Both the position numbers and the translations under genes were made by a program. Positions 1,437 to 56,137 of a stretch of DNA of 64,000 bases are shown here, in pieces. The notes under the pieces are model-generated. The model was given only the letters and a program-made list of their open reading frames with translations, did not search any database and was not told where the DNA came from. Source of the stretch: Candidatus Poriferihabitaceae bacterium (GTDB lineage Bacteria; Pseudomonadota; Gammaproteobacteria; Arenicellales; Poriferihabitantaceae); NCBI GenBank assembly GCA_965213885.1, contig OZ243919.1:154668-218667 (forward strand), written 5' to 3'. Each line of letters opens with the position of its first letter. The first letter of the stretch is position 1.

Positions 1437-1460
1437 TCAGGCCGTTCATCGGAGACCGCG

Positions 1461-1487: not shown

Positions 1488-1631
1488 CCGTCCTTCCCCG
1501 TACGGTTTTCCCCGGCGTCGGCATCCGGATCCTGCCAGGGAATGGCAGGGGCATAACAGCATGGCCGCAAGCTGTTAGAATCCGTTCATCGGCAGTGAAC
1601 CGGCGGGAGCGGCGTCCCGGTCTCCCGGCGA

Positions 1632-4708: not shown

Positions 4709-5073
4709 TGGGGGAGAAGCAGGACCGGGACAGGAATTCGTTTGTGGAAATGATGGCGGAGGTTCGCGCCTTCCACCGCAAGCACCGTTTCAGGGAGAGG
4801 GGCGGGGAGGATCTGGTGTACCGCCTTGCCCTGATGACAGAGGAGCTCGGCGAGATCGCCGACTGCGTGACCAAGGGGAAGTCGCGGGACCAACTGGCCA
4901 CGGAATGCGCCGATCTGCTGATCCTGCTCATGGGCAACGCGGTCGCTGCAAACTTCGACCTCGGCGAGGCGTTCTGGCGCAAGATGGCGGAAGTCAACCA
5001 GCGGGGCGAGCGCATCGTGGATGGCAGGGTGCGCGTAACCGCCTACCGCGACGAAGAGGAAACCGGGCACTGA
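4705..5073 (+). CDS. Small MazG-like nucleotide pyrophosphohydrolase domain protein
   Basis: ALMTEELGEIADCV...ECADLLILLMG..A: the EExxE/D helix pattern of MazG-type all-alpha NTP-PPases. I placed the start at the ATG overlapping the glyS stop (ATGA), not at the track start 4627, which lies inside glyS. Confidence 0.6.
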   Translation: MMGEKQDRDRNSFVEMMAEVRAFHRKHRFRERGGEDLVYRLALMTEELGEIADCVTKGKSRDQLATECADLLILLMGNAVAANFDLGEAFWRKMAEVNQRGERIVDGRVRVTAYRDEEETGH

Positions 5074-5370
5074 GCCGCACTCGGGGATGGTGGCAAAGTC
5101 AACACCTGCATGGGCCGGAGGGGCGCCCGGTACGGGTGCGGTTTCGTTCGGCGTCGATCCGCCGATTGGCGGCAGGCCAGGACGGGGGACGCGTGCGCCA
5201 ATCCCCGGGCCGGTCATAGTCATTATTCATCCATCGGTGATTTTGTTACCATCCCGGGGATCAGAGGCTTTCCCTTTTGGCGCAGACAACCCAATTCCTC
5301 CCGATGACTGCCGGCCTGGGGGCATCACATTCCGTGCATTCCGGTACCGGAATCTGTCCGTGACGGACTG

Positions 5371-5949
5371 ATGGATTCCACCAGGATAGTCGTTGTGGGC
5401 CGTGACGGCGTCATCAACCGGGATTCCGACGACGGCATCAGGTCGCCGGCGGAGTGGGAACCGTTGCCCGGCAGCCTCGAGGCAATCGCCCGACTGTGCC
5501 ATGCCGACTACCGTGTCGTGGTGATGACCAACCAGCCCGGCATCGCGAGGGGACATTTGACCCTGAATGCCCTGAACCGCATTCATCAGGAGATGCTCAA
5601 GCATCTGCATGCCCTTGGCGGGGAAATCGATGCGATCTTCTTCTGTCCTCATGGGCCCGGCGATGGATGCCGGTGCCGCAAGCCCCTGCCGGGCCTGTTT
5701 GCTGACCTGCAGCAACGCCTGAAATGCAATCTCAACGGCGTGGATGCCGTGGGAGACTCCCTGCAGGACCTGCGGGCCGCCCGGGCTGCACACGCCAATC
5801 CCGTGCTGGTGCGTACCGGAAGAGGCCTCGGGACCGAGGCCGCCCTGACCGCCGGGGAGGACGCCGGCGAAATCGGCGAAGTGGCGGTCCACGACGACCT
5901 TGCGGCGTACGTGGAATCATTGCGTGACCGGGGGCTCCTGGCCTCATGA
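5371..5949 (+). CDS. gmhB: D-glycero-D-manno-heptose 1,7-bisphosphate phosphatase-like HAD-IIIA protein
   Basis: MTNQPGIARG, the zinc-loop pattern FCPHGPGDGCRCRKPLPG, and VGDSLQDL match GmhB. Motif I reads VGRDGVIN where FLDRDGTIN is expected (see findings). Confidence 0.8.
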   Translation: MDSTRIVVVGRDGVINRDSDDGIRSPAEWEPLPGSLEAIARLCHADYRVVVMTNQPGIARGHLTLNALNRIHQEMLKHLHALGGEIDAIFFCPHGPGDGCRCRKPLPGLFADLQQRLKCNLNGVDAVGDSLQDLRAARAAHANPVLVRTGRGLGTEAALTAGEDAGEIGEVAVHDDLAAYVESLRDRGLLAS

Positions 5950-8633: not shown

Positions 8634-9050
8634 TCAGTCATTGACTCCCTCCAGCCAGAACAGATCGGCCTCGATCCAGCCAAACCGCTCGAAATCCACC
8701 CGGCCCCGGCGGTCGAACACTACCCCCTCGGACTGCAGCAGTCCGCGCTGTACGGAATCCCCCCGGCCGTCCTTCCGGAGGCTGATCTCCCCGCGGCTGT
8801 TGATGACCCGGTGCCAGGGAACGTTGTCCCCGGCATTCAGCGCTGCCATGGCGTAGCCCACCTGTCTCGGCCCGGTTCTGACCATTCTGGCAATTCCCCC
8901 ATAGCTGGCCACCTGCCCGGGAGGAATGCGCCGGACCACGTGGTAGATCCGCTGGTAAAGGCTTTCGCCGTTCTGGTCATCCGGCACGATGGGTCGTCTG
9001 GAGTTGGTCTTGGCATGAATTATATGGGACTTGTAAACCAGAGTTGACAA
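8634..9050 (-). CDS. Alkyltransferase-like protein (ATL; MGMT DNA-binding domain without the acceptor Cys)
   Basis: IPPGQVASYGGIA...PRQVG...VPWHRVIN: the PCHRV active site of O6-alkylguanine transferases is replaced by PWHRV, as in E. coli YbaZ/Atl. Confidence 0.75.
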   Translation of the reverse strand: MSTLVYKSHIIHAKTNSRRPIVPDDQNGESLYQRIYHVVRRIPPGQVASYGGIARMVRTGPRQVGYAMAALNAGDNVPWHRVINSRGEISLRKDGRGDSVQRGLLQSEGVVFDRRGRVDFERFGWIEADLFWLEGVND

Positions 9051-9404: not shown

Positions 9405-9546
9405 AGGTTCCGCGATGGCATCAGGGTCGGGGCTGGCATCACGGAACCGGGGGAATCTCCAGGGTTCTGCAGAAGGGCATCCCGGACCGCATCGAATAGA
9501 CCCTTGGCGGTGAAATGACTACACTAGCCGACACGTTCGCAAGACA

Positions 9547-10167
9547 GTGTCCGCATCAGACATGTTTGAATTGCTCAAGGCCGGCGGCTTTCTGATTTGG
9601 CCCATTCTCCTTTGCTCCGTGATTTCACTGGCGATCATCCTGGAACGCACCCTGGCGCTGAAGTCCAGTGACGTGGCGCCGCCGGCACTGCTGGACCAGA
9701 TTCGCGACGACCTGAGGCAGGGCAGGCTGGATGCAGAAGCCATCAACGCGATCGAGGAGAATTCGCCACTGGGCAGGGTCCTGGCTGCCGGGCTGCGCAA
9801 TCCCAACCAGCACCGCGTGGTGATCAAGGAATCCATCGAGGAGGCCGGGCGGCATGTCGTGCACGACCTGGAAAGAAACCTGCCCACCCTGGGGACCATC
9901 GCCAATATCACCCCGTTACTCGGCCTCCTGGGAACCGTGATCGGCATGATCAAGGTCTTCTCCGCCATCACCACCTTCGGCGTCGGCGACCCCCAGGCCC
10001 TGGCGGAAGGTATTTCCGAAGCCCTGGTCACGACCGCGGCCGGCCTGTCGGTGGGCATTCCCAGCCTGTTGTTCTATCGCTACTTCCGCAGCAAGGTGAG
10101 TTCCCTCACCGTGGACATGGAGCAGCAGGCACTCATGTTCATGAAGATCCTGCAGCGGGAAGGTTAG
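9547..10167 (+). CDS. exbB: MotA/TolQ/ExbB proton-channel family protein
   Basis: LKAGGFLIWPILLCSVISLAIILER, ..LPTLGTIANITPLLGLLGTVIGMI.., ALVTTAAGLSVGIP motifs. GTG start; an in-frame ATG at 9562 is an alternative. Confidence 0.85.
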   Translation: MSASDMFELLKAGGFLIWPILLCSVISLAIILERTLALKSSDVAPPALLDQIRDDLRQGRLDAEAINAIEENSPLGRVLAAGLRNPNQHRVVIKESIEEAGRHVVHDLERNLPTLGTIANITPLLGLLGTVIGMIKVFSAITTFGVGDPQALAEGISEALVTTAAGLSVGIPSLLFYRYFRSKVSSLTVDMEQQALMFMKILQREG

Positions 10168-10179
10168 CCGGGCGGGGAC

Positions 10180-10623
10180 ATGCGATTCCGGAACGTCAGC
10201 GACGAAAGTGATGCGGACATCAACCTGACTCCGCTGATCGACGTGGTTTTCCTGCTGCTGATCTTCTTCATGGTGACCACCACGTTCTCCCGGGAGGCGG
10301 AAATCAAGCTCAACCTGCCGGAAGCGGACACCGCGGAGCAGATCGACGCCGAACCCCGCTTCCTGACCATCCAGATCAACGATATCGGCCAGTACGGGGT
10401 ACAGGGCCCCGGCGAGGAGGCACCCAGACAACTGGTCAATACCAGCGTGGAAACGCTGCGCAAGGCGCTCAAGCGGGCGGCAGGAGATCTCCGGGAACCC
10501 CTGATCCTGATCAGGGCCGACGGCCTCACCCCCCACGAATCCGTGGTCAGGGCCATGGATGCGGCCCGCCAGCTGGGCTGGTTCCAGATCACTTTCGCCA
10601 CCGGGATGCCGCGGCGACCGTAA
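10180..10623 (+). CDS. exbD: ExbD/TolR biopolymer transport protein
   Basis: INLTPLIDVVFLLLIFFMVTT TM helix plus a periplasmic domain, directly after exbB. Confidence 0.85.
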   Translation: MRFRNVSDESDADINLTPLIDVVFLLLIFFMVTTTFSREAEIKLNLPEADTAEQIDAEPRFLTIQINDIGQYGVQGPGEEAPRQLVNTSVETLRKALKRAAGDLREPLILIRADGLTPHESVVRAMDAARQLGWFQITFATGMPRRP

Positions 10624-10788
10624 ACCGCCGTCGCGCCATCGTCCGGGGGCGGGGCGTTCCGGGGCCAACCGTCGGGGACCGCGTGGAAATACCCATCCTG
10701 TCCCCCTGTTCGGGTGGCAGTCCCGCGGGTCTTGGGCGTGGTGAACCGGCAGCGCCCGACGCCGGGGGTTCCGCGTCGGGCTGCTCTC

Positions 10789-12177
10789 CTACCGGCCGGG
10801 CTTCTTGGCCGGGCGCTTCCACCCGGGGTAGGAAACCTGCTTTGCCCGGCTGACCACCAGTGCCGGGCGGTCCACGTCCCGCGTGACGGTGGTTCCGGCC
10901 CCGATGGTGACGCCGTCGGCGATACGGACCGGCGCGACCAGTTGGCTGTCCGAGCCGACGAACACGTCGTCGCCGATCACGGTCCGGTGTTTCCCGGCAC
11001 CGTCGTAGTTGCAGGTGATGGCGCCCGCGCCGAAATTGGTATTGCGGCCCAGCGTGCTGTCGCCGATGTAGGCCAGGTGATTGGCCTTGCTGCCTTCCGC
11101 CAGTTCGCTGTTCTTGACCTCGACGAAGTTGCCGACCCGGACATGGTCGCCGAGACGGGAATCCGGGCGCAGCCGCGCGAACGGTCCGACATGGCAGTGG
11201 TTGCCGAGTTCCGCGTTCTCAAGCAGGCTGTGGGGATGAATGCGGCAGTGATTTCCGATGCGCGCATCACGGATCACGCAGCCCGGGCCGATGGTGACGT
11301 CGTCACCGACTTCCACGACGCCCTCCAGTACCACGTTCACGTCCACCACGCAGTCCCGGCCGAATCTGGCCTCGCCGCGAATATCGATTCGCGCGGGATC
11401 CATGAGCGTGACCCCGGCTTCCATCAGGGCGCCGGCCGCCAGCCGCTGGAAGCGCCTTTCCGCCATGGCCAGTTCGCTGCGGGAGTTGATCCCGAGAAAC
11501 CGGTCGGGGTCCCGCGCGGTTTCCCCATGGATGGTTTCACCGTCGGCGGTGGCCAGGGCGACGATATCCGTCAGGTAGTACTCACCCTGTCTGTTGCCGC
11601 AGCCGATGCCGTCCAGCCAGCGGGCCAGGACGGTTGCACTGCAAAGCAGGATGCCGGTATTGATCTCACCGATGGCGAGTTGCCCGGGGGCGGCATCCCG
11701 CTGCTCGACGATGCCCGTGATGCTGCCCGCGCTGTCCCTGAGAATCCTGCCGAGCCCGGAGGGGTCGGAGGGTGTTGCCGTGAGAATCGCCAGGACGTCT
11801 TCCGACCGGCACAGGCTGCCGAGGTCGTCCGGGCTCACCAGCGGAACGTCACCATACAGGACCAGGCACCGGGACTGCGGATCCACGTGCGGCATGACCA
11901 GGCGGACGGCATGACCGGTGCCGTTCTGCTCCGCCTGTTCCACCCAGTTGAACCGGCCGGACGCCGTGGTGAACAGCGGCTCCATGGCGGCGCGTACCGA
12001 TTCGCCTCCATGGCCGATGACGACATGGATGCGGGCGGGTTCGAGGCGAAGAGCCGTCCCGAGCACATGGAACAGCATCGGCTTTCCGCCCACGGGATGC
12101 AGGACCTTGGGCAGGTCGGAATGCATACGTGTCCCCCTGCCGGCAGCAAGAATGATCACTTCGAGGGGCATGGGCAC
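10789..12177 (-). CDS. glmU: Bifunctional UDP-GlcNAc pyrophosphorylase / GlcN-1-P N-acetyltransferase
   Basis: VIILAAGRGTRMHSDLPKVLHPVGGKPM N-terminus and a C-terminal hexapeptide-repeat (LbH) region. Confidence 0.95.
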   Translation of the reverse strand: MPMPLEVIILAAGRGTRMHSDLPKVLHPVGGKPMLFHVLGTALRLEPARIHVVIGHGGESVRAAMEPLFTTASGRFNWVEQAEQNGTGHAVRLVMPHVDPQSRCLVLYGDVPLVSPDDLGSLCRSEDVLAILTATPSDPSGLGRILRDSAGSITGIVEQRDAAPGQLAIGEINTGILLCSATVLARWLDGIGCGNRQGEYYLTDIVALATADGETIHGETARDPDRFLGINSRSELAMAERRFQRLAAGALMEAGVTLMDPARIDIRGEARFGRDCVVDVNVVLEGVVEVGDDVTIGPGCVIRDARIGNHCRIHPHSLLENAELGNHCHVGPFARLRPDSRLGDHVRVGNFVEVKNSELAEGSKANHLAYIGDSTLGRNTNFGAGAITCNYDGAGKHRTVIGDDVFVGSDSQLVAPVRIADGVTIGAGTTVTRDVDRPALVVSRAKQVSYPGWKRPAKKPGR

Positions 12178-12429
12178 GTTGGGAGTCAGGGCGTTTATCT
12201 TGTCGGACGTGCAAAAAAGCCTGGGGCGCCCCTCTCGACGCCGGGGACCCGGGCAATACTATCATACGCATCTCGCCGGCCGTCATGGGCTGCCATGCGC
12301 GGCTGTTCCCGCCATGGACGGTTGGTTGGCCTGCCGGGGCTGTGCGGGCATGCGGGAAACCCGGGCATCCGCGTCGCCCCGGGGGCAGCGAAGCACAAGG
12401 GGGATCCGGTTTCGGGAGAACCGGGAGAG

Positions 12430-14778
12430 CTACCTGTGCCGGGCGAGATGCAGCCAGGTCTCCACTACCGTATCCGGGTTCAGCGACACGCTCCCGATGC
12501 CCTCGTCCATGAGCCATTGGGCAAGGTCCGGGTAGTCCGAAGGCCCCTGCCCGCAGATGCCGACATACTTGCCGGCCCGGTTGCAGGCGCGGATGGCCAT
12601 CGAGAGCATGGCCTTCACCGCCTCGTCGCGTTCGTCGAACAGGTCCGCGATGATCGCGGAGTCGCGGTCCAGGCCCAGGGTGAACTGGGTCATGTCGTTG
12701 GAGCCGATGGAAAAGCCGTCGAAGCGTTCAAGGAAATGGTCCGCGAGCACGGCGTTGGAGGGGATTTCGCACATCATGATGACCCTGAGGCCGTTCCTGC
12801 CTCGCTCCAGGCCGTTTTCCTTCAGAAGCCCGATGACCGCGTCGGCCTCGTCCAGGGTGCGCACGAAAGGAACCATGACTTCCACGTTGACGAGTCCCAT
12901 GTCGTCCCGCACCCGCCTGACCGCCTCGCATTCCATTTCAAAGCAGTCGCGGAACGATTCGGCGATATAGCGTGAGGCGCCGCGAAAGCCGAGCATGGGA
13001 TTTTCCTCTGCCGGCTCGAACAGGCTGCCTCCAAGCAGGTTGGCGTATTCGTTGGACTTGAAATCGGACAGCCGGACGATCACCGGCCTTGGGAAGAATG
13101 CCGCGCCGAGGGAGCCGACGCCCTCGACCAGCTTTTCCACGTAGAAGCTCCTTGGGTCGGCGTACCCCGCCATGCGCCGGTGGATTTCCTCGCGCAGGTC
13201 CTCCGGCATGTCGTCCTTCCGGAGCAGGGCCTTGGGGTGCACGCCGATGGTGTTGTTGATGATGAACTCCAGGCGCGCCAGGCCGACCCCATGGTTCGGA
13301 ATCCTCGAAAATGCGAAGGCCCGTTCCGGGTTGCCCACATTCATGGTGATCTTGAAACCGACCTCCGGCATCCGGTCGAGGTCGGTGGTCATGACCTCGA
13401 AATCAAGCAGGCCCGCATAGACCTTGCCGGTATCGCCCTCGGCGCAGCATGCCGTGACTTCGCTGCCGTCGGCGAGGACCCGGGTGGCATTCCCGCAACC
13501 CACGATGGCGGGCACACCCAGCTCCCGCGCGATGATGGCGGCATGGCAGGTGCGGCCGCCACGGTCGGTGACGATGGCCGCCGCCCTCTTCATCACCGGC
13601 TCCCAGTCCGGGTCCGTCATGTCGGTGACCAGCACGTCGCCGGGCTCCACCCTGTGGAGGTCGTCCACGTTTGGGACAATCCGGACCCTGCCGGTGCCGA
13701 TGCGCTGACCCACGCTGCGGCCGGTAACCAGCACCTCGCCGTCCTCCCTGAGGCGGAACCGCTCCAGGAGATTGCCGCTGTCCCGGCTGCGCACGGTCTC
13801 CGGACGGGCCTGGAGAATCATCAGTTCCCCGGTTTCGCCGTCCTTGCCCCATTCGATGTCCATGGGGCGGCCGTAGTGCTCCTCGATGGCCACGGCCATC
13901 TTCGCAAGCTCCGTGACGTCCCCGTCGGTGATGGAAAACGCGTATTGCCGGGCCGGGTCCACATCGATGGTCTCAACCGTCCTTTCGGACCCTTCGGGCG
14001 CGTACACCATCTTGATCAGCTTCGAGCCCCGGGTGCGACGCAGGATTGCGGGCCGGCCGGCCGCCAGGGCTGGCTTGTAGACATAGAATTCATCCGGGTT
14101 CACGGAGCCCTGCACCACGCACTCCCCGAGCCCCCAGGAGGCGGTGATGAACACCGCTTCCTCGAAGCCGGACTCGGTGTCGATGGTGAACATGACGCCG
14201 CTGGCGCCCAGGTCGCTGCGGACCATGCGCTGGATGCCGGCGGAAAGGGCCACGTCGGCATGGGCGAAGCCCTGGTGCACCCGGTAGGCGATGGCGCGAT
14301 CATTGAACAGGGACGCGAACACCTCCCGGACACGGTGGAGCACCTGGTCGATGCCGCGAACGTTGAGAAAGCTTTCCTGCTGCCCGGCGAAGGAGGCTTC
14401 CGGCAGGTCCTCGGCGGTGGCTGAGGACCGTACCGCAACACTGCCGCCAAGGGTGTCGTAGGCTTCACGGATGGATCGTTCCAGCGCCGCGGGAAGGGGA
14501 TGATTCATGACCATGCCGCGTATGGATGCGCCGGCTTCCCTGAGATCCGCCAGGTTGTCGACATCCAGGGAATCGAGGATCGCGCCGATGTTCCCGCCGA
14601 GGTCCCCATGCCCGATGAAGGCGCGGTAGGCATCCGCGGTGGTGGCGAATCCATCGGGGACCCGGATGCCCGCCGATGACAGGCCAGAAATCAATTCCCC
14701 GAGCGAGGCGTTTTTTCCTCCGACACGGGGTACATCGTCCATCCCCAGGTCATGAAACCAGACAATCCACTCAGTCAA
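12430..14778 (-). CDS. ppsA: Phosphoenolpyruvate synthase
   Basis: [25 protein letters not shown] (phospho-His loop), SIGSNDMTQ; 782 aa. Confidence 0.97.
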
Positions 14779-14950
14779 CGGTTCGGCCTCGACTCATCTG
14801 TCCAACACGAAGGCGGATTCTAGCAGCCGCACCCCGCAGGATCACCAGCGTACCCGGCACGTTTCATCCGCCAGCCTGCCCGGAGAAATCCGGGGAGGCC
14901 GCAGGGGGCAATTTCCGTATAATCCGGTGAGCCGCCCCAATTGTTGACCT

Positions 14951-15772
14951 GTGCCCCACCGTCCCGTTTTCATCGTCTCGGACCGCAGCGGACTGACCGC
15001 GGAAACGCTCAGCCATACGCTGATGAGCCAGTTTCCGGGTGTCCGGTTCCACCAGCGTGCCCTGCCTTTCGTGGATACCCCGCAGAAGGTGCGGCAGGCC
15101 GTTCGGGACATCGACGAGGCCGGTCGAGAATCGGGTTGCCGGCCGCTCGTGTTCGCGACTTTTGTCGACGATTCGTTCAGTGAAATCCTGTCGACGGCCG
15201 AAGGGGAAGTCTTCGACCTGCTCGCCCCGTTCATCGGCCGCATGGAACGACTTCTCGACCAGCAGTCCTCCCACAAGCCCGGCCAGTCCCACGGCATTTC
15301 CGATGTCGGGCGGTATTACCGGCGCATCGATGCGGTGAACTATGCCATGCATTGTGACGACGGCCTGCATACGCAGGATTACAACCGGGCCACGCTGATT
15401 CTCCTTGGCGCCTCGCGCTCCGGCAAGACGCCCACCTGCCTCTATCTTGCGCTCCATTTCGGATTCTATGCGGCGAACTACCCGCTGACGGAGGAGGACT
15501 TCGGTGCCGGCGTGCTGCCCGGGCCCCTGGAGCCGCACAAGGACAGGATCTTCGGTCTGACCATCGACCCGACGCGGCTTCACCAGATACGGACCGAGCG
15601 ACGTCCGGGAAGCGACTACGCGTCCGTGGCCAGGTGCCGCCAGGATGTCACCCGAGCGGAACAGATGTTCCGGCACGACGGGATACCATTCTGCGATTCC
15701 ACGAATTATTCCGTGGAGGAACTGGGCAGCACCATCAAGCACCAGATGGGCCTGGTGTCGTCCCTGTACTGA
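14951..15772 (+). CDS. ppsR: PEP synthase regulatory protein (bifunctional kinase/pyrophosphorylase)
   Basis: [34 protein letters not shown] (P-loop); divergent from ppsA. GTG start. Confidence 0.9.
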
Positions 15773-15786
15773 ATGTTCATGGTTCG

Positions 15787-16030
15787 GTGCCGCCCGGCAG
15801 GATCGGATTCGTCAGCCTGGGCTGTCCCAGGGCCACGGTGGACTCGGAGCGGACCCTGACCGAATCAGGGTCCGGGGCTACGAGATGGCACCGGACTATG
15901 CCGCGGCGGACCTGGTGATCGTGAATACCGGCGGCTTCATCGATGCGGCGGTGGGGGAATCCCTGGAAGCGATCGGTGAAGCCATGGACAGGAAATGGCC
16001 AGGTGCTCGTTACCGGATGCCGTCCGGTCA
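15787..16030 (+). pseudogene. rimO: Remnant of rimO (ribosomal protein S12 methylthiotransferase), N-terminal ~85 codons only, frameshifted
   Basis: Three frames together read [22 protein letters not shown] / [38 protein letters not shown] / NGQVLVTGC. This is colinear with the E. coli RimO N-terminus ([59 protein letters not shown]). The radical-SAM and TRAM parts are absent because clpB starts at 16098. Confidence 0.6.
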
Positions 16031-16097
16031 CATTGAACAACGGGGCAAAATCCCCATGTAGCGGAGAGTACAGGGAACCTTTTCCGGAGTTGTTTCA

Positions 16098-47127: not shown

Positions 47128-47610
47128 ATGAAAGGGAATGAAACAGTCATCAAGCACCTGAACAGGGTTCTGAAAAATGAACTGACGGCCATCAACCAGT
47201 ATTTCCTCCATGCGCGGATGCTGAAGGACTGGGGCCTGGTCGCCCTGGGTGAGCATGAATACCATGAATCCGTTGACGAGATGAAACACGCCGATGGGCT
47301 CATCGAACGGATTCTTTTTCTGGAAGGTCTGCCGAATCTGCAGGATCTCGGGAAACTCATGATCGGCCAGAATACCCGGGAGATTCTGGAATGCGACCTG
47401 AAAATGGAGATGAAGGCGCACCCGGATTTACAGGCAGCGATTGCGGACTGTGAATCCGTCGGGGATTATGTTTCCCGGGCGCTGTTCGCATCCATCCTGG
47501 AATCCGAAGAAGAGCATATCGACTGGCTGGAAACCCAGTTGGAACTGATCGACCGGGTTGGGCCTGAAAATTATCAGCAGTCACAGATGGCAGCCACCCC
47601 GGAAGCCTGA
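47128..47610 (+). CDS. bfr: Bacterioferritin
   Basis: [66 protein letters not shown]: ferroxidase-centre residues and the heme-ligand Met context. Confidence 0.95.
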
Positions 47611-48142
47611 GCCTTGCAGCCGACTGCAGGCGACAGACCTCTGATCGCCACCCCAGAAGGTGGCATGCCGGCGGGTATCAGCATCACCCGGTAGCGTTCC
47701 CCCGAGCACCGTCATCCGGTGTCCCGGCCAGGCTGTCGGCGGATATTCGCGGCCCGCAGCCTCCAAGACAGTGACCATGAGGTATCCGGAGCCCGGGTGC
47801 AAGGTGTCCCTTGTCATGCGACGATCCCCGACATCAGCTTCTTCGGGCGCAGGGGATCCCGGGAAGCGGTTCAGGTCCGGACGCCGGACTCGCGGTCTGC
47901 CGGCCCCTGGCTGCGGCAGCGGGTCTGGGAGGATTCCGGATTCCTTGAAAGTCACCCGCTGGGCACTTCGGTGAAATCAGGCCCCGATCACCATCCGGAA
48001 CGGATGGCACGGGAGGGCTGCATCCATCCTGTCCGACATCCGCATTGGGCTCGTTTCCTGTTGTCCGGACTTCCCGCACGGATTTTTGCAATCGGACTAA
48101 TTCTCATTTATACTCCGATTTGCAATTACAGAATTCCGGGGC

Positions 48143-48382
48143 ATGTACGTCTGCATCTGCAAATCCGTTAGCAACCACGAGATCGAGAACGCCGTGGAAC
48201 GGGGAGATGTCACCTCCCTGGCGTGCTTGCGCAGGTGTCTGGGCGTCGGTACGGGATGTGGTATCTGCCTGGAGTCCGCAAAGGAGTGCCTCACCGATGC
48301 GCTCGCACGCAACCTGCCTGGTGATGCGATGGCGCAATATGAATCCCTGGCGGAATTCAGGGTCTCAGCGACTCCGGCCTGA
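48143..48382 (+). CDS. bfd: Bacterioferritin-associated ferredoxin ([2Fe-2S] BFD-like)
   Basis: MYVCICKSVSNHEI...GVGTGCGICL: the C-x-C...C-x2-C pattern of Bfd. Confidence 0.85.
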   Translation: MYVCICKSVSNHEIENAVERGDVTSLACLRRCLGVGTGCGICLESAKECLTDALARNLPGDAMAQYESLAEFRVSATPA

Positions 48383-48558
48383 TCCGCAAATTCCGGCAAC
48401 GAACGGACTCGTCACCCTATCCCAAGACACAGGCAGGCTGTGCCTGACTTGGGTTATGATCGCATACTTCCTCTGTCCAATCGTAGGGACCCCCTTCGTG
48501 ACTTGCTGCCATGCGGCATTGAATCGTTGCCCTCTCCCCAAACAGATATCCCGTCACA

Positions 48559-49017
48559 GTGCCCCCCACTCCTGAAGAAAAGGCCGAAGGATTTACCGGT
48601 GACCTGCACAAGGCCGGACTGAAGACAACGTTGCCGAGACTGAAGGTTCTCTCGGTCCTGGAAGCAAGCGATAACCGGCACATGTCCGCGGAGGATGTGT
48701 ATCGCGAGGTCCTGAAGGACAGTGACCCCGTCGGTCTCGCCACCGTCTACCGCGTATTGGCCCAGTTCGTGGAAGCCGGGCTGGTGGTCCGGCACCAGTT
48801 CGAGGGAGACAAATCGGTTTTCGAACTGAATGACGCTGCGCATCATGATCATATGGTCTGTATGAAATGCGGCCTTGTGATCGAATTCGTGAATCGGGAG
48901 ATTGAGTCACTACAGCAGCAGGTGGCGGAAAGTCATGATTTCGACCTGCAGGATCACTCATTGACGCTGTATGGACTGTGCAGCAATTGCCGCGAGTCCC
49001 CCCGGTTGTCCAGATGA
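48559..49017 (+). CDS. fur: Ferric uptake regulator
   Basis: GLKTTLPRLKVLSVLE..HMSAEDVY..ATVYRVLAQFVEAGLV, HHDHMVCMKCG..., LYGLCSNC. GTG start; the N-terminal extension is uncertain. Confidence 0.9.
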   Translation: MPPTPEEKAEGFTGDLHKAGLKTTLPRLKVLSVLEASDNRHMSAEDVYREVLKDSDPVGLATVYRVLAQFVEAGLVVRHQFEGDKSVFELNDAAHHDHMVCMKCGLVIEFVNREIESLQQQVAESHDFDLQDHSLTLYGLCSNCRESPRLSR

Positions 49018-49355: not shown

Positions 49356-49790
49356 TCAGGGGTTTCGATGTCCAACATCCATCACCGGGAGCCTGAAACG
49401 GAGATTCTCTTCGATCCCGACCATGGTCGATCGCTCCGCCGGGGCAAATTCACGCAACCGGTCAATGACATCCTCGACCATGTCCTCCGGCGCCGAGGCG
49501 CCGGAAGTCTGCCCGACAGAGACTACATCTTCGAACCATTCCTTCTCGATGGCGTCAACATGTCTACCAGATCGCCCGGAGTTCCGGCTTCGGCTCCCGA
49601 TTTCTCGAAGCCGGTTGCAGTTGGAACGGTTGTGTGCTCCGACCACCAGGATGAGGTCGACGATCGCAGTCAGCTTGCGAACCGCAGCCTGGCGATTCTG
49701 CGTGGCATAACAGATGTCCGTTTCCAACGGAAAGTGCGCCTGACGCGGGAGAAATTCCCCGATGGGGGCCTGGGGTAAAATCCGGCACCT
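49356..49790 (-). pseudogene. ispH: Fragment of ispH/lytB (HMBPP reductase), C-terminal ~45% only
   Basis: ..TDICYATQNRQAAVRKL..VDLILVVGAHNRSNCNRL..IEKEWFEDVVSVGQTSGASAPEDMVEDVIDRL is colinear with the E. coli IspH C-terminal part (DICYATTNRQEAV..VVGSKNSSNSNRL..VGVTAGASAPD). The N-terminal half, with two of the three cluster cysteines, is absent. Confidence 0.65.
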
Positions 49791-50295
49791 CCGGCAACGG
49801 GAGATCCGGAAAACCAGCCTGTACGTCATCCCCCCCCGGGGTAAAGGTATTCCACGGCCCTCCGAATACCGTTCCTTTACTGAAGAATTGATCTACAGCC
49901 CGATTCCCTTAGTCCTAGTGTTTGGTAGGGAGTTCCGATTAGAATATCTCTTGTCTGGCTGTTCCGGGGGGATTCAGGTTGATTGAAGTGGCTGTCACCG
50001 GACTGACGTATTGGCTGTTGTGGAGCAGGCTGGCACCGTCTGGTGCAACCTTGTCGGGCGAGAGTGCATCCTCGCACCGATGACGGAAGGATATTTCAGC
50101 GAGATGCCGACTATTCGATACGCAAACCGGACCGGTCATTCACCACTCCGTCGAAACCCTCATTTCCAGGCATCAGTCCTGTCGGTAACCCCGACAGGCG
50201 CTACATACCAGCTACGATCAGGCGTTACTTCCCGGAAATTCCCGATACCAGAACGATAAAATCCAATCATTCAAATTCCCCAATCAGGATCCTGG

Positions 50296-50457
50296 ATGAC
50301 CTCTAGAGCGAGTACATCTTCCGGTTCTTCGGCGCCACCCGTTCTCGTTACCGGCTCAGCCGGGCATGTGGGCGCCAATCTCGTTCGCCGACTGTTCGCC
50401 GATGGAACCAGGGTACGGGTGTTGCTGAGGCACGAGGACAACAACGAGGCACTGGAT
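50296..50457 (+). pseudogene. N-terminal fragment of an NAD(P)-dependent epimerase/dehydratase-type SDR, joined to the CYP51 remnant
   Basis: PPVLVTGSAGHVGANLVRRLFADGTRVRVLLRH: Rossmann TGxxGxxG start only (~50 codons). After it the sequence switches to CYP51 homology in another frame. Confidence 0.45.
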
Positions 50458-51171
50458 GGTGTTCACGGTCCCCATCTTTGGACGTGGCGTGGCCTACGAC
50501 GTCACGTCCGAGCTCATGGCCGAGCAACTGGGTTTTCTGTATCCGGCGCTTCGCGAATCCGCAATGTGCAGGGTTGCCCATCATGCTCGAGGAGCGCGCC
50601 CGGTTTGCCGACAACCTGGGTGAACAGGGAATTGTCGATCTGCCACGCGATGAATGAACTGACCGTCAAGATCGCCAGCCGGTGCCTCATCGGAGGGGAA
50701 GTCCGGGAACGGGTGGACTCGGATTTTGCCGATGCCGACCACGAACTGCAAAACGGCATCAACACCCTGGGCTTCTTTCTCCCCAGGCTTCCAACCCCTG
50801 CGCACCGTTCCCGTGACCGGGCCCGGCAGGAAGTGGCCGAGCTCTTCAGCGAGGTCATGGCCGAACGTCGGTGCTCCGGAGTCCAGGCCGATGATTTCAT
50901 GCAGACCCTCATGCGCGCCCGGTACAAGGATGGCAGGGCGTTGCGCGACGAAGAGATTACCGGCATCCTGCTGACGGTGCTGTTCGCGGGCCAGTACACG
51001 AGTGCCGTGCTCGCAACCTGGACCGTGCTTCTCGACCGGTTCGATTTTCAGATCGACACCGCATCTCCCGCGCCGAGCTATGGCAGCTGGGTCACCGGCC
51101 CACGGGAACCGTGCAGGCTCCGTTACCGCCGGCACTCACTCACGGGTGTATTTCGAAGAACGGTCTCATGA
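50458..51171 (+). pseudogene. cyp51: Sterol 14-alpha-demethylase (CYP51) remnant: 5'-truncated, frameshifted, internally deleted
   Basis: Segments in different frames read FTVPIFGRGVAYDV..ELMAEQLGFL / PIMLEERARFADNLGEQGIVDL / NELTVKIASRCLIGGEVRE..FADADHELQNGIN..FFLPRLPTPAHRSRDRARQEV..DFMQTLMRARYKDGRALRDEEITGILLTVLFAGQYTSAVLATWTVLL. The sequence then jumps directly to DRFDFQID..PAPSYGSWVTGPREPCRLRYRR. This is colinear with M. tuberculosis CYP51 as recalled (PIFGEGVVFD.., ELTIYTSSACLIGKKFR.., FAGHHTSS.., EYEFEM..PACVRYRRR). About 170 residues, including the Cys heme-ligand loop, are missing. Confidence 0.7.
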
Positions 51172-54100
51172 CCCGGCGCTACGACGTTGTCATCGTTGGA
51201 GCGGGGCCGGTCGGCAGTTTGTGCGCGCTTGCCCATGCACGGAAAGGGGCCAGGGTGGCCTTGCTCGAAGCGAATCCCAAGGCCGCCCAAAGGCTGGCGG
51301 GCGAATGGCTGCATCCCCCCGCCGTGAGAATACTGCGCGACCTCGGGGTTGAAATCGATGTGCAGACCCGGAAACCGACGGGTAAGGGGTTTGCGATATT
51401 TCCGGAAGATCACACGGAGCCGATCGTCTTTCCTTATCCGGACGGGACCCGCGGATTGACATTCGAGCACGCCTCTCTCGTCTCAAGCCTACATGAGGCG
51501 GTAGAAAACAACCCGAATATTGAACTGCTTCTTCAGGCCCGGGTGCATACGGTTGAGGACGGCCAGGTCATCTATTCACGCAACGGCAACGATGAAGCCC
51601 TGACAGTCCCCCGGGTCATCGGCGCCGACGGCCAGGCTTCCGTCGTCCGCAAATCGCTGGGTCTGTCGATCAGCCCGTTGATCTCCTCGTGGACGGTCGG
51701 GCTCCTGTTGACCGGGGTGAAGCTGCCACTCGAGGGGTATGGCCATGTGCTGCTTGGCGGTCCGGGCCCAATGCTGATTTACCGCCTGGGCGAGCATCAT
51801 GTCAGGCTGATCGTCGATGTCCCGCTGAACCACACGGCACCCAGGGATCGGATCGGATTCCTGCTGGACTCGTATACCGATTTGTTGCCGGAATCGCTCC
51901 GATCCGCGTTTGTGGAGGCCCTGCGGGTGAGGAACTTCCAGGTTGCGGCGAACAAGCTGAGACCGCACGCCACCTACGGAAGTTCGCATCGCGTGCTGAT
52001 TGGCGATGCTGCCGGGCACTATCATCCGATGACGGCGATGGGAATGACCTTCGGTTTCGGCGATGCGCTCTCGCTGGCCGAGTGCGGGGATTTTCGCGAA
52101 TTCACCGCCAGTCGCTTCCGGGCGACCCGGACCCCTTCGTTTCTCGCGATGGGCCTGTACGAGGTCTTTGCCGATCATCGGTTCGAGGCGGTGGCGGTCC
52201 GGCACGCGATTTACCGCAGCGCCCGGGCAAATCCCGCATTCCGCGACCGCACCGTGCGTTTTCTCGCCTGTGAAGACACCTCCGCGGTCCGCATAGGTAT
52301 CGCCGCTTTCGGAACGGTGGCCCGCGCGGTTTCCGGGCAGATTCCGCGATCCCATGACCGGCTTGCCTGGCGCAAGGCCCGAGACGTCAATCAGGCCCTT
52401 GCCGTCCGTCTCGGATGGCTGTTGCGAAGCATCTGGCAACTGTACAGGGCGAGAAGCCATACAGGGGAGATTGACGGACGGACCTGGAGCGCATTGGCAG
52501 GCGTGTTTCCGAACTCCATGCCGCAGAAAGTCCGCGGCTCCCGGCCCAGCCGCCCGCAGGCGGGCGCTTCGATTGACGCATATCCGGCATTGCAGAGTGC
52601 GACCAGGCGCCTCTTGGATCTGCAGGGTGAGGACGGGGACTGGGAAGGGGAAATGGTCTGGTGTCCCATGCTCACGGCGCAATACGTGCTGCTGCATCAC
52701 ATCATCGAAAAGCCGCTCGAGCCCGGCCGGCGACTGCGCGTGCTGCGCTCGTTCGCACAAACCCGCCACGAGGATGGCTTGTGGGGCATGCATGAACACT
52801 CGCAACCCCATCTGTTCGTCACCACGCTGGTGTACGTCGCGGCCAGACTGCTCGGTCTCCAGCGAAATGATCCGATGCTCGGGCCGGCCCGTCGTTTCCT
52901 GCAGGCAGAGGGGGTTCTCGGTATTCCGAGTTGGGGGAAGTTCTGGCTGGCGCTGCTGAATCTCTATGACTGGCGCGGTGTCAACGCCATTCTTCCGGAG
53001 TTGTGGACTTTGCCGCGATGGGTCGCGATTCATCCCTCGAACTGGTACTGCCATACCCGGCTCATCTACATGGCGATGTCGGCGATCTACCCGCAACGGT
53101 TCCAGGCATCCGTGACCCCCGTGATCGCGTCGTTAAGGGAGGAACTCTTTCCCCAGGGATTTGCGAATGTCGATTTTTCCACGGCCGGCGGCCGCTTGCG
53201 CGACGATGACCTCTACGCGCCCCCGGGTGTGTGGCTGCGGTCCGGATACAGGTTTGCAAGGCTGTATGAACGATACCACCACAAACGCCTCCGCAGCCGG
53301 TGTCTGGATTCGATCAACCGGCGAATCAAGTGGGAGTTGCAGACCACCGACCACACGAGCATCTCCCCGGTCAGCGGGATCCTCAATATCCTTGCCCTGT
53401 GGTTGCGTGATCCGGACGATTCCGACTGTCACCGGGCGCTGGAGCGGCTGGATGGCTGGATCTGGGAGGACGAGGAACATGGGGCGCGGGTCACCGGTGC
53501 GAGAAGCGCTTCGTGGGATACGGGGTTCGCCCTTCAGGCCCTGGGGACTGTGCCCGATATCGATGGCGTCGAAATCGCCATGTCAGCCGGAGCCGACTTC
53601 CTTCGCCGGCAACAGATCCGTACCAGCTTCGAAGGGTTTCGCGAGGCCTACCGGAATGACCCCAAGGGAGGCTGGTGTTTTGCCGGGGGGTGGCATGGCT
53701 GGCCCGTGACGGACTGTACCGCGGAAGCGGTGCTGGGGCTGACCGCGGTCCAGCGCGAGGACACGGATACCGCAATGCTCGGCGATGCGGTTCGCTTCAT
53801 GATGCGCGGCCAAAACCGCGATGGTGGTTTTGGCAGTTACGAGGCGCGGCGCTCCATGCTTGGCCTCGAATGGCTGAACCCGGCCGAGATGTTTGGCGAC
53901 TCGATGACCGAGCGTTCCTACGTCGAGTGCACCGCGTCCTGTCTGGCAGCCTTTGCCGCCTGCGGGGAGGATCTCCCGAAGACCACCAATCAGGCGGTCA
54001 TGAAGGCGATCGCGCGTGCGGATGCCTGGCTTCGCAGGTCCCAGGCATGCGACGGGTCCTGGCGTGGTGTATGGGGCGTCCAGTTCATCTATGGTACGTT

Positions 54101-54632
54101 TTTCGGGATCCGGGGCCTGCTTGCCGCCGGAGCGCTTCCAGGTGATCCGGCATTGCGCCTGGCCTGCCGGTGGCTGCTGGATCGCCAGCGCAGCGATGGT
54201 GGATGGGGTGAGCATCACAGCGGCTGCCTGTCCGGCCGATACGTCGCGCACGAGGAAAGCCAGGTCATTCAGACGGCTTGGGCCATGATCGCGCTGCTGG
54301 AGGCGGAAGATTCGAACTGGAACGCGATTTCAGAGGGCGCCCGGTTTTTGCTGGACGCACAGCATGCGGATGGGTCCTGGCCCAGGCAGGACATGGCCGG
54401 TGTCTTCTTTCGCACGGCCCTGCTGGATTACGTACTGTACCGGCAGTACTTCCCACTGCATGCGCTCGGTCTCTATGAGCAGCGTCGTCGGGTCAGGCTG
54501 GAACTGACGACTCCCGCCAGTGTGGACGTCGACACGGGAACCGCAGCGGGGGAAGATACTTCGAAGCACTGTACGGGCCGGGCCGTACGTTCGGGGTCAG
54601 CCGCAGCTATGCATCTTGCGAAACAGCGCTAG
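51168..54632 (+). CDS. Fusion protein: squalene monooxygenase (epoxidase)-like flavoprotein plus oxidosqualene cyclase
   Basis: N-terminal half: YDVVIVGAGPVGS, GEWLHPPAVRILRDLG, IGADGQASVVRKSL, LIGDAAGHYHPMTAMGMTFGFGDA. C-terminal half: SWGKFWLALLNLYDWRGVN, HPSNWYCHTRLIYMAMS, SASWDTGFALQAL, GGWHGWPVTDCTAEA, QNRDGGFGSYE, YVECTASCL, QACDGSWRGVWGVQFIYGT, QRSDGGWGEH, QHADGSWPRQDMAGVF. The frame is uninterrupted. The ATG at 51168 overlaps the stop of the CYP51 remnant (ATGA). Confidence 0.85.
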   Translation: MTRRYDVVIVGAGPVGSLCALAHARKGARVALLEANPKAAQRLAGEWLHPPAVRILRDLGVEIDVQTRKPTGKGFAIFPEDHTEPIVFPYPDGTRGLTFEHASLVSSLHEAVENNPNIELLLQARVHTVEDGQVIYSRNGNDEALTVPRVIGADGQASVVRKSLGLSISPLISSWTVGLLLTGVKLPLEGYGHVLLGGPGPMLIYRLGEHHVRLIVDVPLNHTAPRDRIGFLLDSYTDLLPESLRSAFVEALRVRNFQVAANKLRPHATYGSSHRVLIGDAAGHYHPMTAMGMTFGFGDALSLAECGDFREFTASRFRATRTPSFLAMGLYEVFADHRFEAVAVRHAIYRSARANPAFRDRTVRFLACEDTSAVRIGIAAFGTVARAVSGQIPRSHDRLAWRKARDVNQALAVRLGWLLRSIWQLYRARSHTGEIDGRTWSALAGVFPNSMPQKVRGSRPSRPQAGASIDAYPALQSATRRLLDLQGEDGDWEGEMVWCPMLTAQYVLLHHIIEKPLEPGRRLRVLRSFAQTRHEDGLWGMHEHSQPHLFVTTLVYVAARLLGLQRNDPMLGPARRFLQAEGVLGIPSWGKFWLALLNLYDWRGVNAILPELWTLPRWVAIHPSNWYCHTRLIYMAMSAIYPQRFQASVTPVIASLREELFPQGFANVDFSTAGGRLRDDDLYAPPGVWLRSGYRFARLYERYHHKRLRSRCLDSINRRIKWELQTTDHTSISPVSGILNILALWLRDPDDSDCHRALERLDGWIWEDEEHGARVTGARSASWDTGFALQALGTVPDIDGVEIAMSAGADFLRRQQIRTSFEGFREAYRNDPKGGWCFAGGWHGWPVTDCTAEAVLGLTAVQREDTDTAMLGDAVRFMMRGQNRDGGFGSYEARRSMLGLEWLNPAEMFGDSMTERSYVECTASCLAAFAACGEDLPKTTNQAVMKAIARADAWLRRSQACDGSWRGVWGVQFIYGTFFGIRGLLAAGALPGDPALRLACRWLLDRQRSDGGWGEHHSGCLSGRYVAHEESQVIQTAWAMIALLEAEDSNWNAISEGARFLLDAQHADGSWPRQDMAGVFFRTALLDYVLYRQYFPLHALGLYEQRRRVRLELTTPASVDVDTGTAAGEDTSKHCTGRAVRSGSAAAMHLAKQR

Positions 54633-55665
54633 CCGAAGTTTCGGGCCGGGCGCCATTCCCTTCTTCCTCAGTTTCCCGGGCACCGGGTTTGCGGGCCAGG
54701 AAGAAAAACATGGGCGCGAAAACACCGGACTCGCCACCTTCGACCAGGGAATCCGCCCCTGATTCAACAACCTGCTGATCTCGGCGGTGCCTTTCGGAAC
54801 CACTCGCACCCTCTCGGCGACCCGCAACACCAGATTGGTCAGGAACCGGCCCGCCGGTGTGCGCGGCATGCCTGAAAGACTGAAATCACGACCCTGCAAT
54901 GCCCGGTACCAGGGCGTTTCCGGGTCCGACTCGGCGGCAACGTCGCGACCCTCCAGGAGTTCGAACCCGGCCGCGCGAAGTGCATCGCAGACCTCCGACG
55001 TGCCGGCGATATCCGGCAGTCCGTTGCCTGTTTCAATTTCCTTCTTGATCCGCAGATGCGCTTCGTTCTGCGGATCAAAGTGTTCCGTAAGACACCACTC
55101 GTAGGGCGCAGGACGCGGAAGATCTCCCCGCATGCGGCTGTCTTGTCCGGTGCGTGGGGCATGGACTCGATGGCGATGGTGCTGTCATAGCAGCCATCGT
55201 CTTCGGGTATCTGCATGTAGTCGCCGTGAATGAATCCGCACAATGACTGGATGTCCCGGGTGTGCAGCCTGGCGCGTTCGATCTGGTAGGCGTTATTGTT
55301 GATCCCGACGAATCCGGCCCCGGAATCACGGGCCAGGTTGGACATCGGTCCCCCGACTCCGCAACCCACGTCCAGCACCCGCATCCCCGGCCCGAGGGAC
55401 AACCGGTCAGCAAGATACTTCTGGTGCCTGAGAAGCGAAGCCTTCAGGTTCTCGCCCCGCCGCCGGGGGGCAAAGTGAAAGGACCGGCCCCAGCCAAATT
55501 CGTAGAAATCGGTTGCCAGGTCGCAGTAGTGATTGACGAGCATCACATGGCGTTCCTTATCTTCGCTCCGGCATCGTGAAGTTCTGTGTATTGGGCGACC
55601 ACGGAGTTCACTTCATCCGGGGCGATGTCTCCAAGGGACCGGGACTCCGGCTGCTTGACGGGTCC
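54608..55665 (-). pseudogene. Sterol C-24 methyltransferase (ERG6/SMT-like), multiply frameshifted
   Basis: Colinear pieces lie in different minus frames: DEVNSVVAQYTELHDAG / EDKERHVMLVNHYCDLATDFYEFGWGRSFHFAP..LDVGCGVGGP..GINNNAYQIERA..AIESMPHAPDK..GEIFRVLRP / YEWCLTEHFDPQNEAHLRIKKEIETGNGLPDI..PWYRAL.. / ADSLVEGGESGVFAPMFFFLARKPG. At least 3 frame changes. The 3' end overlaps the cyclase 3' end convergently. Confidence 0.7.
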
Positions 55666-56137
55666 ATGGGGTGATCGATTGTCTTGCGTGGTTCCCACGA
55701 TTTCATAAACCTGTGTTCGATTCCCGGAAAATTTCTACGGTATCTGGCTGATATGACAATATCAATTTCCCGGAGTCTTCCAGGGGAGGTGAACCTGAAG
55801 GCTGCAGTGTCGAATCATAGGGAATCGACGGGGAAATTGCATGCCGGACAGGATGGGATTCGGGCATCTTCGTCCGGGCCTCACGCTTCGAGATCGAACC
55901 CGGACACCGGGAACAGCAGAATCACTGCAAAGGACTATCCGAGAGTATCCAGTCACATGCCCGAACACCGCACTGATCAGGCACTTCCCGAACAGGAGGC
56001 AGGACATGCCCGCCTGACGATCTCTGCGGGACTGTTCGTGACGCTGTTCATCGTGACCGCGTCTCTTGCCTGTATCGGCACCCGCACCCGCACCCGCTAT
56101 TTTGCCTTTGGGAACCTGGACCGGTGTTTGCGTGCGT

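Follow-up and report, generated by a model that had tools for sequence, protein, structure and literature searches.

Within a 64,000-nucleotide stretch (the window, in whose coordinates positions are given) of contig OZ243919.1 from a Candidatus Poriferihabitaceae bacterium, a single long open reading frame (ORF) at 51168-54632 appears to join a squalene epoxidase (SE) to an oxidosqualene cyclase (OSC), and it lies among the remains of a sterol gene cluster. This raises the question of whether it encodes a genuine two-module enzyme, whether it was created by an error of assembly, or whether it is a relic that has yet to be broken. Sequence comparisons make it very probable that the gene encodes a genuine and conserved two-module enzyme, an orthologue of the MsbE-type "bifunctional squalene epoxidase/sterol cyclase", whose partner genes have been lost while the fusion itself has been kept by selection.

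A single reading frame carries both modules

The frame is uninterrupted on the forward strand from 51111 to 54632, and residues are counted from the ATG at 51168, which is also the start of an identical public protein (P0001, 1,154 amino acids, 100% identity) and of all relatives. Residue conservation was scored on an alignment of 84 family sequences, the window's included, onto which human numbering was placed. The gene and its parts are as follows:

51168-54632 (+), SE-OSC fusion coding sequence, 1,154 codons plus stop, orthologue of the MsbE type, assigned from the ORF, Pfam and NCBIfam
51168-52457 (+), SE module, residues 1-430, with a domain for binding flavin adenine dinucleotide (FAD) and substrate at 1-305 and a helical C-terminal part (Pfam; structure 6C6N)
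51198-51215 (+), GxGxxG dinucleotide-binding motif, G11-G16, invariant in 84/84 sequences
52023-52046 (+), HPMTAMGM box, H286-M293, aligned to HPLTGGGM at 414-421 of human squalene monooxygenase (SQLE)
52458-52592 (+), connector, residues 431-475, Ser/Pro/Gly-rich, variable in sequence and fixed in length
52593-54482 (+), OSC module, residues 476-1105 (SQHop_cyclase_N and _C; osq_cycl, 717 bits; structure 1W6K, 2.5e-129)
53706-53726 (+), catalytic V-T-D-C-T-A-E box, residues 847-853, in which V847 corresponds to human V453, D849 to D455 and C850 to C456
54483-54629 (+), non-conserved C-terminal tail, residues 1106-1154, mostly gaps in relatives

Pfam places FAD_binding_3 at residues 5-304 and SE (PF08491) at 151-305, the latter with 80.4 bits against a gathering cut-off of 20.1, followed by SQHop_cyclase_N at 476-769 and SQHop_cyclase_C at 780-1104. 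Among the NCBIfam models osq_cycl is the top match to the fusion protein, and hopene_cyclase reaches 262 bits. The sequence-only reading had proposed an epoxidase and a cyclase fused in one ORF from the motifs visible in it (GxGxxG, HPMTAMGM, VTDCTAE and the QW type), and this proposal stands, since the frame is single, both domain sets and all of these motifs are present and the architecture is conserved in relatives. No transmembrane helix is predicted in the protein (Kyte-Doolittle, 19-residue maximum 1.5), and both modules therefore probably attach to the membrane monotopically, as the corresponding eukaryotic enzymes do.

The fusion is conserved in relatives from many phyla

One genome per species was scanned for relatives, 83 loci were fetched, and a separate protein search covered 5.8 billion proteins. 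Relatives are encoded in 230 species genomes, and the best 80 of the 230 are all full-length at 63-86% identity. In 83/83 related loci, chromosome-level assemblies included, the fusion appears as a single full-length tblastn high-scoring segment pair in one frame, and in the protein search both domain sets were present together in each of more than 120 clusters, whose proteins are 1,113-1,181 residues long. Pairwise distances in the SE half track those in the OSC half (r = 0.86, Mantel p = 0.001), which indicates that the two halves evolve as a unit. The earlier inference of a gene fusion is thus borne out by conservation across relatives, although the rarity that it implied is not, with some 230 species genomes encoding a relative and the architecture already published.

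The record titles of the relatives are overwhelmingly those of metagenome-assembled genomes (MAGs) of sponge symbionts from many phyla, comprising Gammaproteobacteria (Ca. Poriferihabitaceae, and Arenicellales, the order in which that family is placed), Binatia, Nitrospirales, Acidimicrobiales and Alphaproteobacteria, and further Acidobacteriota, Gemmatimonadota, Verrucomicrobiota, Chloroflexota and Nitrospinaceae. The closest, at 86% identity, are L001 (Ca. Poriferihabitaceae chromosome OZ241969.1) and L081 (an Ircinia sponge metagenome scaffold), the gene of the latter matching from end to end in a single frame at 86.5% identity. Among the 50%-identity representatives of the exhaustive search there are also distant fused SE-OSC proteins at 37-50% identity (for example P0121-P0126, P0134 and P0136), and unfused SEs and OSCs occur at similar distances. 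In a neighbor-joining tree all fused OSCs fall into one subclade that also holds complete unfused OSCs, a topology compatible either with one fusion followed by fissions or with several independent fusions.

There is practically no chance that the single ORF is an assembly or sequencing artifact joining two adjacent genes. The frameshifts in neighboring genes of the window could hint at a noisy assembly, but the one-frame architecture recurs in every one of the independent loci and the length of the connector is fixed. Furthermore, the lesions of the neighbors include deletions of 19, 415 and 3,445 bp, which are not homopolymer noise, and the housekeeping genes past the cluster (panB, a molybdopterin oxidoreductase and an acyl-CoA dehydrogenase) are intact at 91-95% identity, so that the lesions within the cluster are taken to be real mutations.

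Observations that weigh against a maintained bifunctional enzyme

Several observations count against reading the fusion as a working enzyme under selection. The AlphaFold2 (AF2) model of the fusion is poor, with a mean predicted local distance difference test (pLDDT) of 58.7 and a predicted template modeling score (pTM) of 0.39, and neither the packing of the domains nor an inter-domain tunnel is readable from it. In the epoxidase half the Y195-Q168 pair of the human enzyme is replaced by F75 (51390-51392) and H49 (51312-51314) in 84/84 sequences. In the cyclase half the 717 bits of osq_cycl (TIGR03463) fall below its curated cut-off of 851, with the broader TIGR01787 passed at 498 versus 323, and the product-specificity triad is of mixed type, A381/H449/V453 in human numbering (A778/H843/V847), and invariant in the family. 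As for selection, the ratio of nonsynonymous to synonymous substitution rates (dN/dS, omega) comes, by three-point hand arithmetic on pairwise distances, to about 0.28-0.30 on the window branch versus about 0.16 on its sister, a roughly twofold relaxation, and the broken genes for CYP51 and the sterol C-24 methyltransferase (SMT) next to the fusion have pairwise omega values of 0.22 and 0.27, close to its own. A scan of the 64-kb window found no squalene synthase, and among the related loci only L079 has a squalene-synthase-like match in its flanks, a weak one. Counting only the genes of the window, in which sdmB, sdmA, ERG24, CYP51 and SMT are deleted or disrupted, the locus would give the organism no more than an unmodified protosterol. 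Finally, the literature yielded no biochemical test of any fused SE-OSC.

The squalene epoxidase half

Among solved structures the best relative of the N-terminal half is human SQLE (6C6N, E 5.5e-30), and the next flavoprotein follows at 3.5e-11. The flavoprotein fingerprints, G11/G13/G16, the ribose-binding E34, the DG pair D154-G155 and the GD pair G279-D280, are invariant in 84/84 sequences, and in human numbering GxGxxG, E153, R161, G164-E165, D285, G407-D408, P415 and G420 are all kept in 84/84 and M421 in 79/84. The sequence-only assignment of this half to the squalene epoxidases, and of its last motif to a box of the form HP-x-T-x-x-GM instead of the UbiH-type one, agrees with the Pfam match, with 6C6N as best solved relative, with the alignment of HPMTAMGM to HPLTGGGM and with UbiH-type models that stay under their cut-offs.

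At four positions at which human SQLE has F, Q, Y and G, the family carries W166, H168, F195 and A418. The hydrogen-bonded pair of Y195 and Q168 is reported to be critical in the human enzyme, where the Y195F substitution abolishes more than 90% of activity (PMC6327030). The H168/F195 state is, however, common to the bacterial SE clade to which the window protein belongs, where it occurs in 27/28 unfused, 14/14 OSC-fused and 13/13 squalene synthase-fused representatives (54/55), and because it is the norm there, the His and Phe at these positions are best read as a signature of the lineage and not as a defect, with epoxidase activity predicted from sequence and the clade perhaps using a different active-site arrangement. 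The SE assignment has indirect, Rosetta-stone support as well, in that some proteins of the same clade have OSC as fusion partner and others squalene synthase.

It is very unlikely that the N-terminal half is instead an aromatic hydroxylase, UbiH-like or other, acting on the cyclase product, or an enzyme with a different substrate. Models of the UbiH/Coq6 type do match it weakly, and the eukaryotic Y195/Q168 pair is not present, but all matches to UbiH-type NCBIfam models lie far under their cut-offs (for example 78 versus 225), whereas the Pfam SE domain stands at 80 bits against a cut-off of 20 and SQLE leads the solved relatives by 19 orders of magnitude. Moreover, any OSC requires a supplier of epoxide, and members of the same clade are also fused to squalene synthase.

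The cyclase half and its predicted product

The C-terminal half scores 436 bits against human lanosterol synthase (1W6K) compared with 175 bits against squalene-hopene cyclase. In human numbering the residues H232, Y503, D455, C456, C533, W387, W581, F696, Y704 and Y707 are kept in 84/84 sequences and F444 in 81/84, and six motifs of the form Q-x(2-5)-G-x-W/F with a DG core are found at residues 486, 531, 882, 959, 1007 and 1065. A squalene-hopene cyclase was considered and rejected, as the motif is VTDCTAE rather than DxDD(TA) and the hopene_cyclase score lies below its cut-off of 431. The half is thus an OSC with repeated QxxDGxW-type motifs, as had been proposed from the sequence.

With regard to the product, the lanosterol-type triad consists of T381, C or Q449, and V453, and only V453 is matched, so that the inspection of specificity residues that had been suggested gives a divided answer, lanosterol-type at 453 and not lanosterol-type at 381 and 449. 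In bacterial OSCs that have been tested, the choice between lanosterol and cycloartenol could be predicted from one position only, 453, by Val or Ile (PMC4919349), and because V847 corresponds to V453, the most likely product is lanosterol. It is somewhat unlikely, although far from negligible, that the cyclase yields cycloartenol, parkeol or another (proto)sterol or triterpenol, as might be suggested by the His at position 449, which is found in cycloartenol synthases, by an Ala at 381 that is neither of the lanosterol type (T) nor of the cycloartenol type (Y), and by the osq_cycl score under its curated cut-off. Against this, V453 is invariant and the V453/I453 alternative fully predicted the product in the tested bacterial enzymes (PMC4919349), and in the relatives the gene adjoins CYP51 and ERG24, which act on 14-methyl protosterols. 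Lanosterol therefore stays the favored product.

The connector between the halves

A linker between the halves had been placed at about 52430-52590, and a linker does exist there, with a Ser/Pro/Gly fraction of 0.33 over residues ~421-475. Unfused SE relatives align to residues of the window protein as far as ~426-470 (2-470 and 3-426), and unfused OSCs align from ~459-475; since these alignments bracket residues 431-475, the true connector is shorter, only about 45 residues, and is Ser/Pro/Gly-rich. Its length is 45 residues in 72/84 sequences, although its mean pairwise identity is 46%; its mean conservation is 0.56, it is gap-free, and its pLDDT in the AF2 model is below 50.

The sterol gene cluster around the fusion has decayed

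In L081 the cluster is intact, with the order sdmB-like 3beta-hydroxysteroid dehydrogenase (3beta-HSD; 381 amino acids), sdmA-like Rieske oxygenase (360), ERG24 (364), CYP51 (473), fusion (1,152) and, on the opposite strand, SMT (353). In relatives the fusion has as neighbors enzymes that act on 14-methyl and 4-methyl sterols. In the window, remnants of sdmB, CYP51 and SMT lie around the fusion at the expected syntenic positions and in the expected orientations:

50296-50460 (+), sdmB-like 3beta-HSD/epimerase 5' remnant, 55 codons, with an N-terminal Epimerase match in Pfam
50460-50461 (no strand), deletion junction at which 3,445 bp present in L081 (positions 752-4196) are missing, from the comparison with L081
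50461-51025 (+), CYP51 middle remnant, residues ~96-286 of the L081 protein, with two -2 frameshifts, from the same comparison
51018-51171 (+), CYP51 3' remnant, residues 422-473, from the same comparison
50296-51171 (+), chimeric ORF of 291 codons made by the deletions, in which the sdmB start and first 55 codons are joined to the CYP51 remnants
54664-55698 (-), SMT pseudogene, in four tblastn pieces in frames -2, -1, -3 and -2

In a blastn comparison, L081 203-751 matches window 49913-50460, and the 3,445-bp deletion that begins there extends from the remainder of sdmB through the whole of sdmA and ERG24 into CYP51, which lost its first 284 nt. Residues 287-421 of CYP51, which presumably include the heme-thiolate region to judge from the usual P450 layout, were removed by a 415-bp deletion between CTGGACCGyACTG direct repeats. 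The SMT gene is hit at codons 44-49 (-5/+1 nt), 200 (-19 nt) and 322 (-1 nt), its stop codon is gone, and its Methyltransferase and Sterol_MT_C Pfam matches lie on separate ORFs. The stop of the CYP51 remnant overlaps the start codon of the fusion (ATGA), and because the chimeric ORF has kept this overlap at its end, the old promoter of the cluster may continue to drive transcription of the fusion, with translational coupling. A scan of 49800-55900 for promoters and terminators found 0 promoters, and terminators at or below shuffle expectation.

In L001 the cluster is otherwise intact, but the sdmB-like gene is interrupted by insertions of ~2.1 kb and ~2.5 kb (920-3032 and 3127-5615) with long ORFs that may be mobile-element genes. 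These insertions lie ~110-200 bp downstream of the junction of the 3,445-bp deletion (L081 ~863-956 compared with 751), and no link to a deletion caused by an insertion sequence (IS) was found. Just upstream of the cluster remnant, window 49356-49829 (-) encodes the C-terminal ~95 residues of IspH/LytB (Pfam profile 173-266 of 267) with the N-terminal part missing, a probable remnant. It was considered as a cluster-associated ispH like the one in L084, a locus described below, but this finds no support, the two being only 50% identical and ispH occurring nearby in only 2 fetched loci. Further upstream there is an iron-homeostasis trio at 47128-49017 (+), comprising a bacterioferritin (47128-47610), a Bfd-like [2Fe-2S] protein (48143-48382) and Fur (48559-49017), of which Fur was identified by Pfam and the other two by eye from their translations.

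Selection on the fusion gene

With its neighbors deleted or broken, the fusion gene could itself be a dying relic of a sterol island that is being lost as a whole, with the disabling mutation yet to strike. Compared with L081, however, the fusion has 0 internal indels in 3.46 kb, whereas 5 frameshifting indels fall within the 1.95 kb of retained remnants; at the remnant rate ~8.9 indels would be expected in the fusion, for a Poisson P(0) of 1.4e-4. In addition, among 354 columns with at least 97% conservation the window sequence deviates at 2, the same number as the median of the family, and the catalytic residues are all intact.

The dN/dS values are less decisive. Between the fusion and its L081 counterpart pairwise dN/dS is 0.21, compared with 0.14-0.17 for other pairs, and the C-terminal tail has a pairwise omega of 2.1 against L081. 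The similarity of the values for the broken CYP51 and SMT genes to that of the fusion indicates that the decay of the cluster is recent, and for the same reason omega alone does not separate a gene that is still constrained from one that has just been released. The indel and conserved-column tests favor continued constraint on the fusion.

Retention of the fusion without its partners also recurs elsewhere. Among the 83 loci, 44 have all six genes within ~10 kb and 14 have all but SMT, but in 14 loci with ~10 kb of flank on both sides (L019, L020, L026, L038, L044, L046, L056, L059, L069, L072, L073, L077, L078 and L080) the fusion is alone, with no sdmAB, ERG24, CYP51 or SMT within ~10 kb; these belong to Acidimicrobiales, Chloroflexota, Gemmatimonadota and other groups, and two more such loci have a truncated upstream flank. 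In L058 (Alphaproteobacteria MAG OZ244041.1, about 9499-13629) an independently eroded cluster has left CYP51 residues 275-469 and SMT residues 292-346, with ERG24 absent and the fusion intact. The same locus has a stray C-terminal OSC fragment on the opposite strand at 8784-8978.

Taken together, the loss of every other gene of the cluster, the roughly doubled omega on the window branch, the similar omega of the broken CYP51 and SMT and the fast-changing tail give the relic explanation some footing, but the absence of indels, the ordinary number of changes at conserved columns, the intact catalytic residues and the recurrence of fusion-only retention make it unlikely, and we prefer the reading in which the fusion has been kept by selection after its partners were lost.

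Other fusions of the same epoxidase

The exhaustive search and the fetched loci contain two further architectures. A triple fusion of SE, OSC and SMT in one ORF of 1,509-1,524 residues occurs in L076 (9941-14515, +) and L084 (8001-12530, +), in which the epoxidase and then the cyclase come first and a Pro/Ala-rich spacer of ~65 residues separates them from a complete sterol C-24 methyltransferase. The protein of L084 (P0286; a 4.8-Mb ENA contig, 11 member sequences) has a counterpart at 88% identity, P0287, on an independent JGI contig, and the trifunctional form was not found in the literature. In the flanks of the L084 sterol cluster (1714-3232 and 13013-16079), transposase and IS fragments (rve_3, HTH_21, IstB_IS21 and DDE_Tnp_1_4) bracket the cluster, and ispH (LYTB) and a gene for squalene synthase (SQS_PSY) come after it, so that the whole looks like a self-contained, possibly mobile sterol island.

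The second architecture, found outside the window, is a fusion of SE with squalene synthase in proteins of ~1,100 residues (P0205, P0207, P0211, P0222, P0250 and P0264), in which SE at ~6-400 is followed by an unassigned middle region of ~400 residues, containing at most a weak cyclase-like piece of 75 residues, and a C-terminal squalene/phytoene synthase domain (PF00494) at 73-167 bits. In these proteins SE is fused to the preceding step of the pathway and not to the following one. Both forms look less familiar than the SE-OSC fusion.

Proposed function and wider implications

In the working scheme suggested by these assignments, the N-terminal FAD-dependent monooxygenase would convert squalene to (S)-2,3-oxidosqualene using O2 and a reductant, and the C-terminal class II cyclase would protonate the epoxide by D849, held by C850 and C921, with the chain folded against the conserved aromatic cavity, before the H629/Y891 pair deprotonates the product to give a protosterol, most likely lanosterol. 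The fusion would guarantee 1:1 co-localization of both modules at the membrane surface, and, more speculatively, it might hand the epoxide straight to the cyclase or suppress over-oxidation. Bifunctionality is what we infer from the two intact domain sets, and substrate channeling is speculative. As the entry enzyme of the pathway, the fused SE-OSC would nonetheless offer a natural test case for the channeling of a labile epoxide between two monotopic enzymes, and the series of SE-OSC, SE-OSC-SMT and SE-squalene synthase fusions may reflect real substrate channeling at the membrane.

A tentative proposal, which we regard as a serious possibility without expecting it to be the case, is that in this symbiont lineage the fusion has been kept by selection as a stand-alone squalene-to-protosterol module once all tailoring genes were gone, with an unmodified protosterol such as lanosterol as the only sterol made, either used by the bacterium itself or passed to the sponge host or to co-symbionts, and that the series of SE fusions does perhaps represent channeling. 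If so, sterol synthesis would be shared out within the holobiont, and co-symbionts that keep CYP51, ERG24, sdmAB and SMT would finish the protosterol. The recurring fusion-alone loci and L058 hint that, in a horizontally spreading island, the fusion is the smallest unit that selection can maintain. Sterol synthesis in sponge symbionts bears on the origin of sponge sterols, including the precursors of the 24-isopropylcholestane "sponge biomarker", and on the horizontal spread of a eukaryote-like pathway.

Comparison with known systems

The closest published system is the msbA-F locus of a gammaproteobacterial sponge symbiont (Mohanty et al. 2020, Mar Drugs 18:124; PMC7074536; GenBank MT026193.1), whose MsbE has an N-terminal SE and a C-terminal OSC as in the window, a likeness drawn here from the published description. 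MsbE was called a lanosterol cyclase from the same Val marker that the window fusion carries, and its function is an annotation only. The locus encodes an NAD(P) oxidoreductase, a Rieske oxygenase, a sterol reductase, a 14-demethylase, the fusion and an opposite-strand SMT, which is the order of L081, but the equivalents of msbA, B, C, D and F are deleted or pseudogenized in the window. In that symbiont the squalene synthase is on another scaffold (PMC7074536).

Kelly et al. (2022, Microbiome 10:164; PMC9531527) described ERG24-CYP51-LSS clusters (CSGs) in 115/537 Ircinia MAGs from 10 phyla, with purifying selection (omega 0.17), horizontal gene transfer and ~74% nucleotide identity to MT026193.1. 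The 10 phyla, the horizontal transfer and the omega value agree with the spread of the relatives and the dN/dS found here, and L081 stems from their metagenome (record KELL22-1). Their "LSS/ERG7" alignment of 3,765 positions has the length of the fused gene, but they name the gene as lanosterol synthase only, the SE half being undiscussed, and their clusters are intact whereas that of the window is eroded.

Brown et al. (2023, Nat Commun 14:1859; PMC10070321) reported "fused SMO/OSC homologs" in sponge and environmental metagenomes, and in their Supplementary Data one gene ID of the Aplysina aerophoba cluster is both the ERG1 and the ERG7 homologue. Their clusters also carry sdmA/B, ERG24, ERG11 and SMTs; the SE part was trimmed off for phylogeny, and the enzymes assayed were SMTs and not the fusion. 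The search for an already catalogued fusion of epoxidase and cyclase, which the sequence-only reading had left to be made, therefore ends with MsbE and with these homologs. The fusion is not discussed in a survey of triterpenoid cyclases (PMC12324236) or by Hoshino & Gaucher (2021).

The separate squalene monooxygenase and OSC genes of Methylococcus capsulatus and Gemmata, and of P0130, P0131 and P0143, belong to the same families and carry out the same steps with two polypeptides. Unfused relatives are only 45-54% identical to the window protein, but unfused SEs share the W166/H168/F195/A418 signature with its SE half, and the complete unfused OSCs P0130 (from a Myxococcota MAG), P0131 and P0132 fall into the subclade of the fused OSCs by neighbor joining. 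Human SQLE (6C6N) and lanosterol synthase (1W6K) are the best solved matches, with FAD-binding and cyclase catalytic residues conserved, but the human enzymes are separate proteins of the endoplasmic reticulum, and the window has F/H at Y195/Q168 and A/H at T381/C449.

The architecture, the cluster context and the spread across phyla have thus already been published, and the window is a further member of this family. What is locally new is modest: compared with the intact clusters described before, this one is eroded with only the fusion gene intact, which suggests that there are protosterol-only producers among the symbionts and marks the fusion as the unit under selection.

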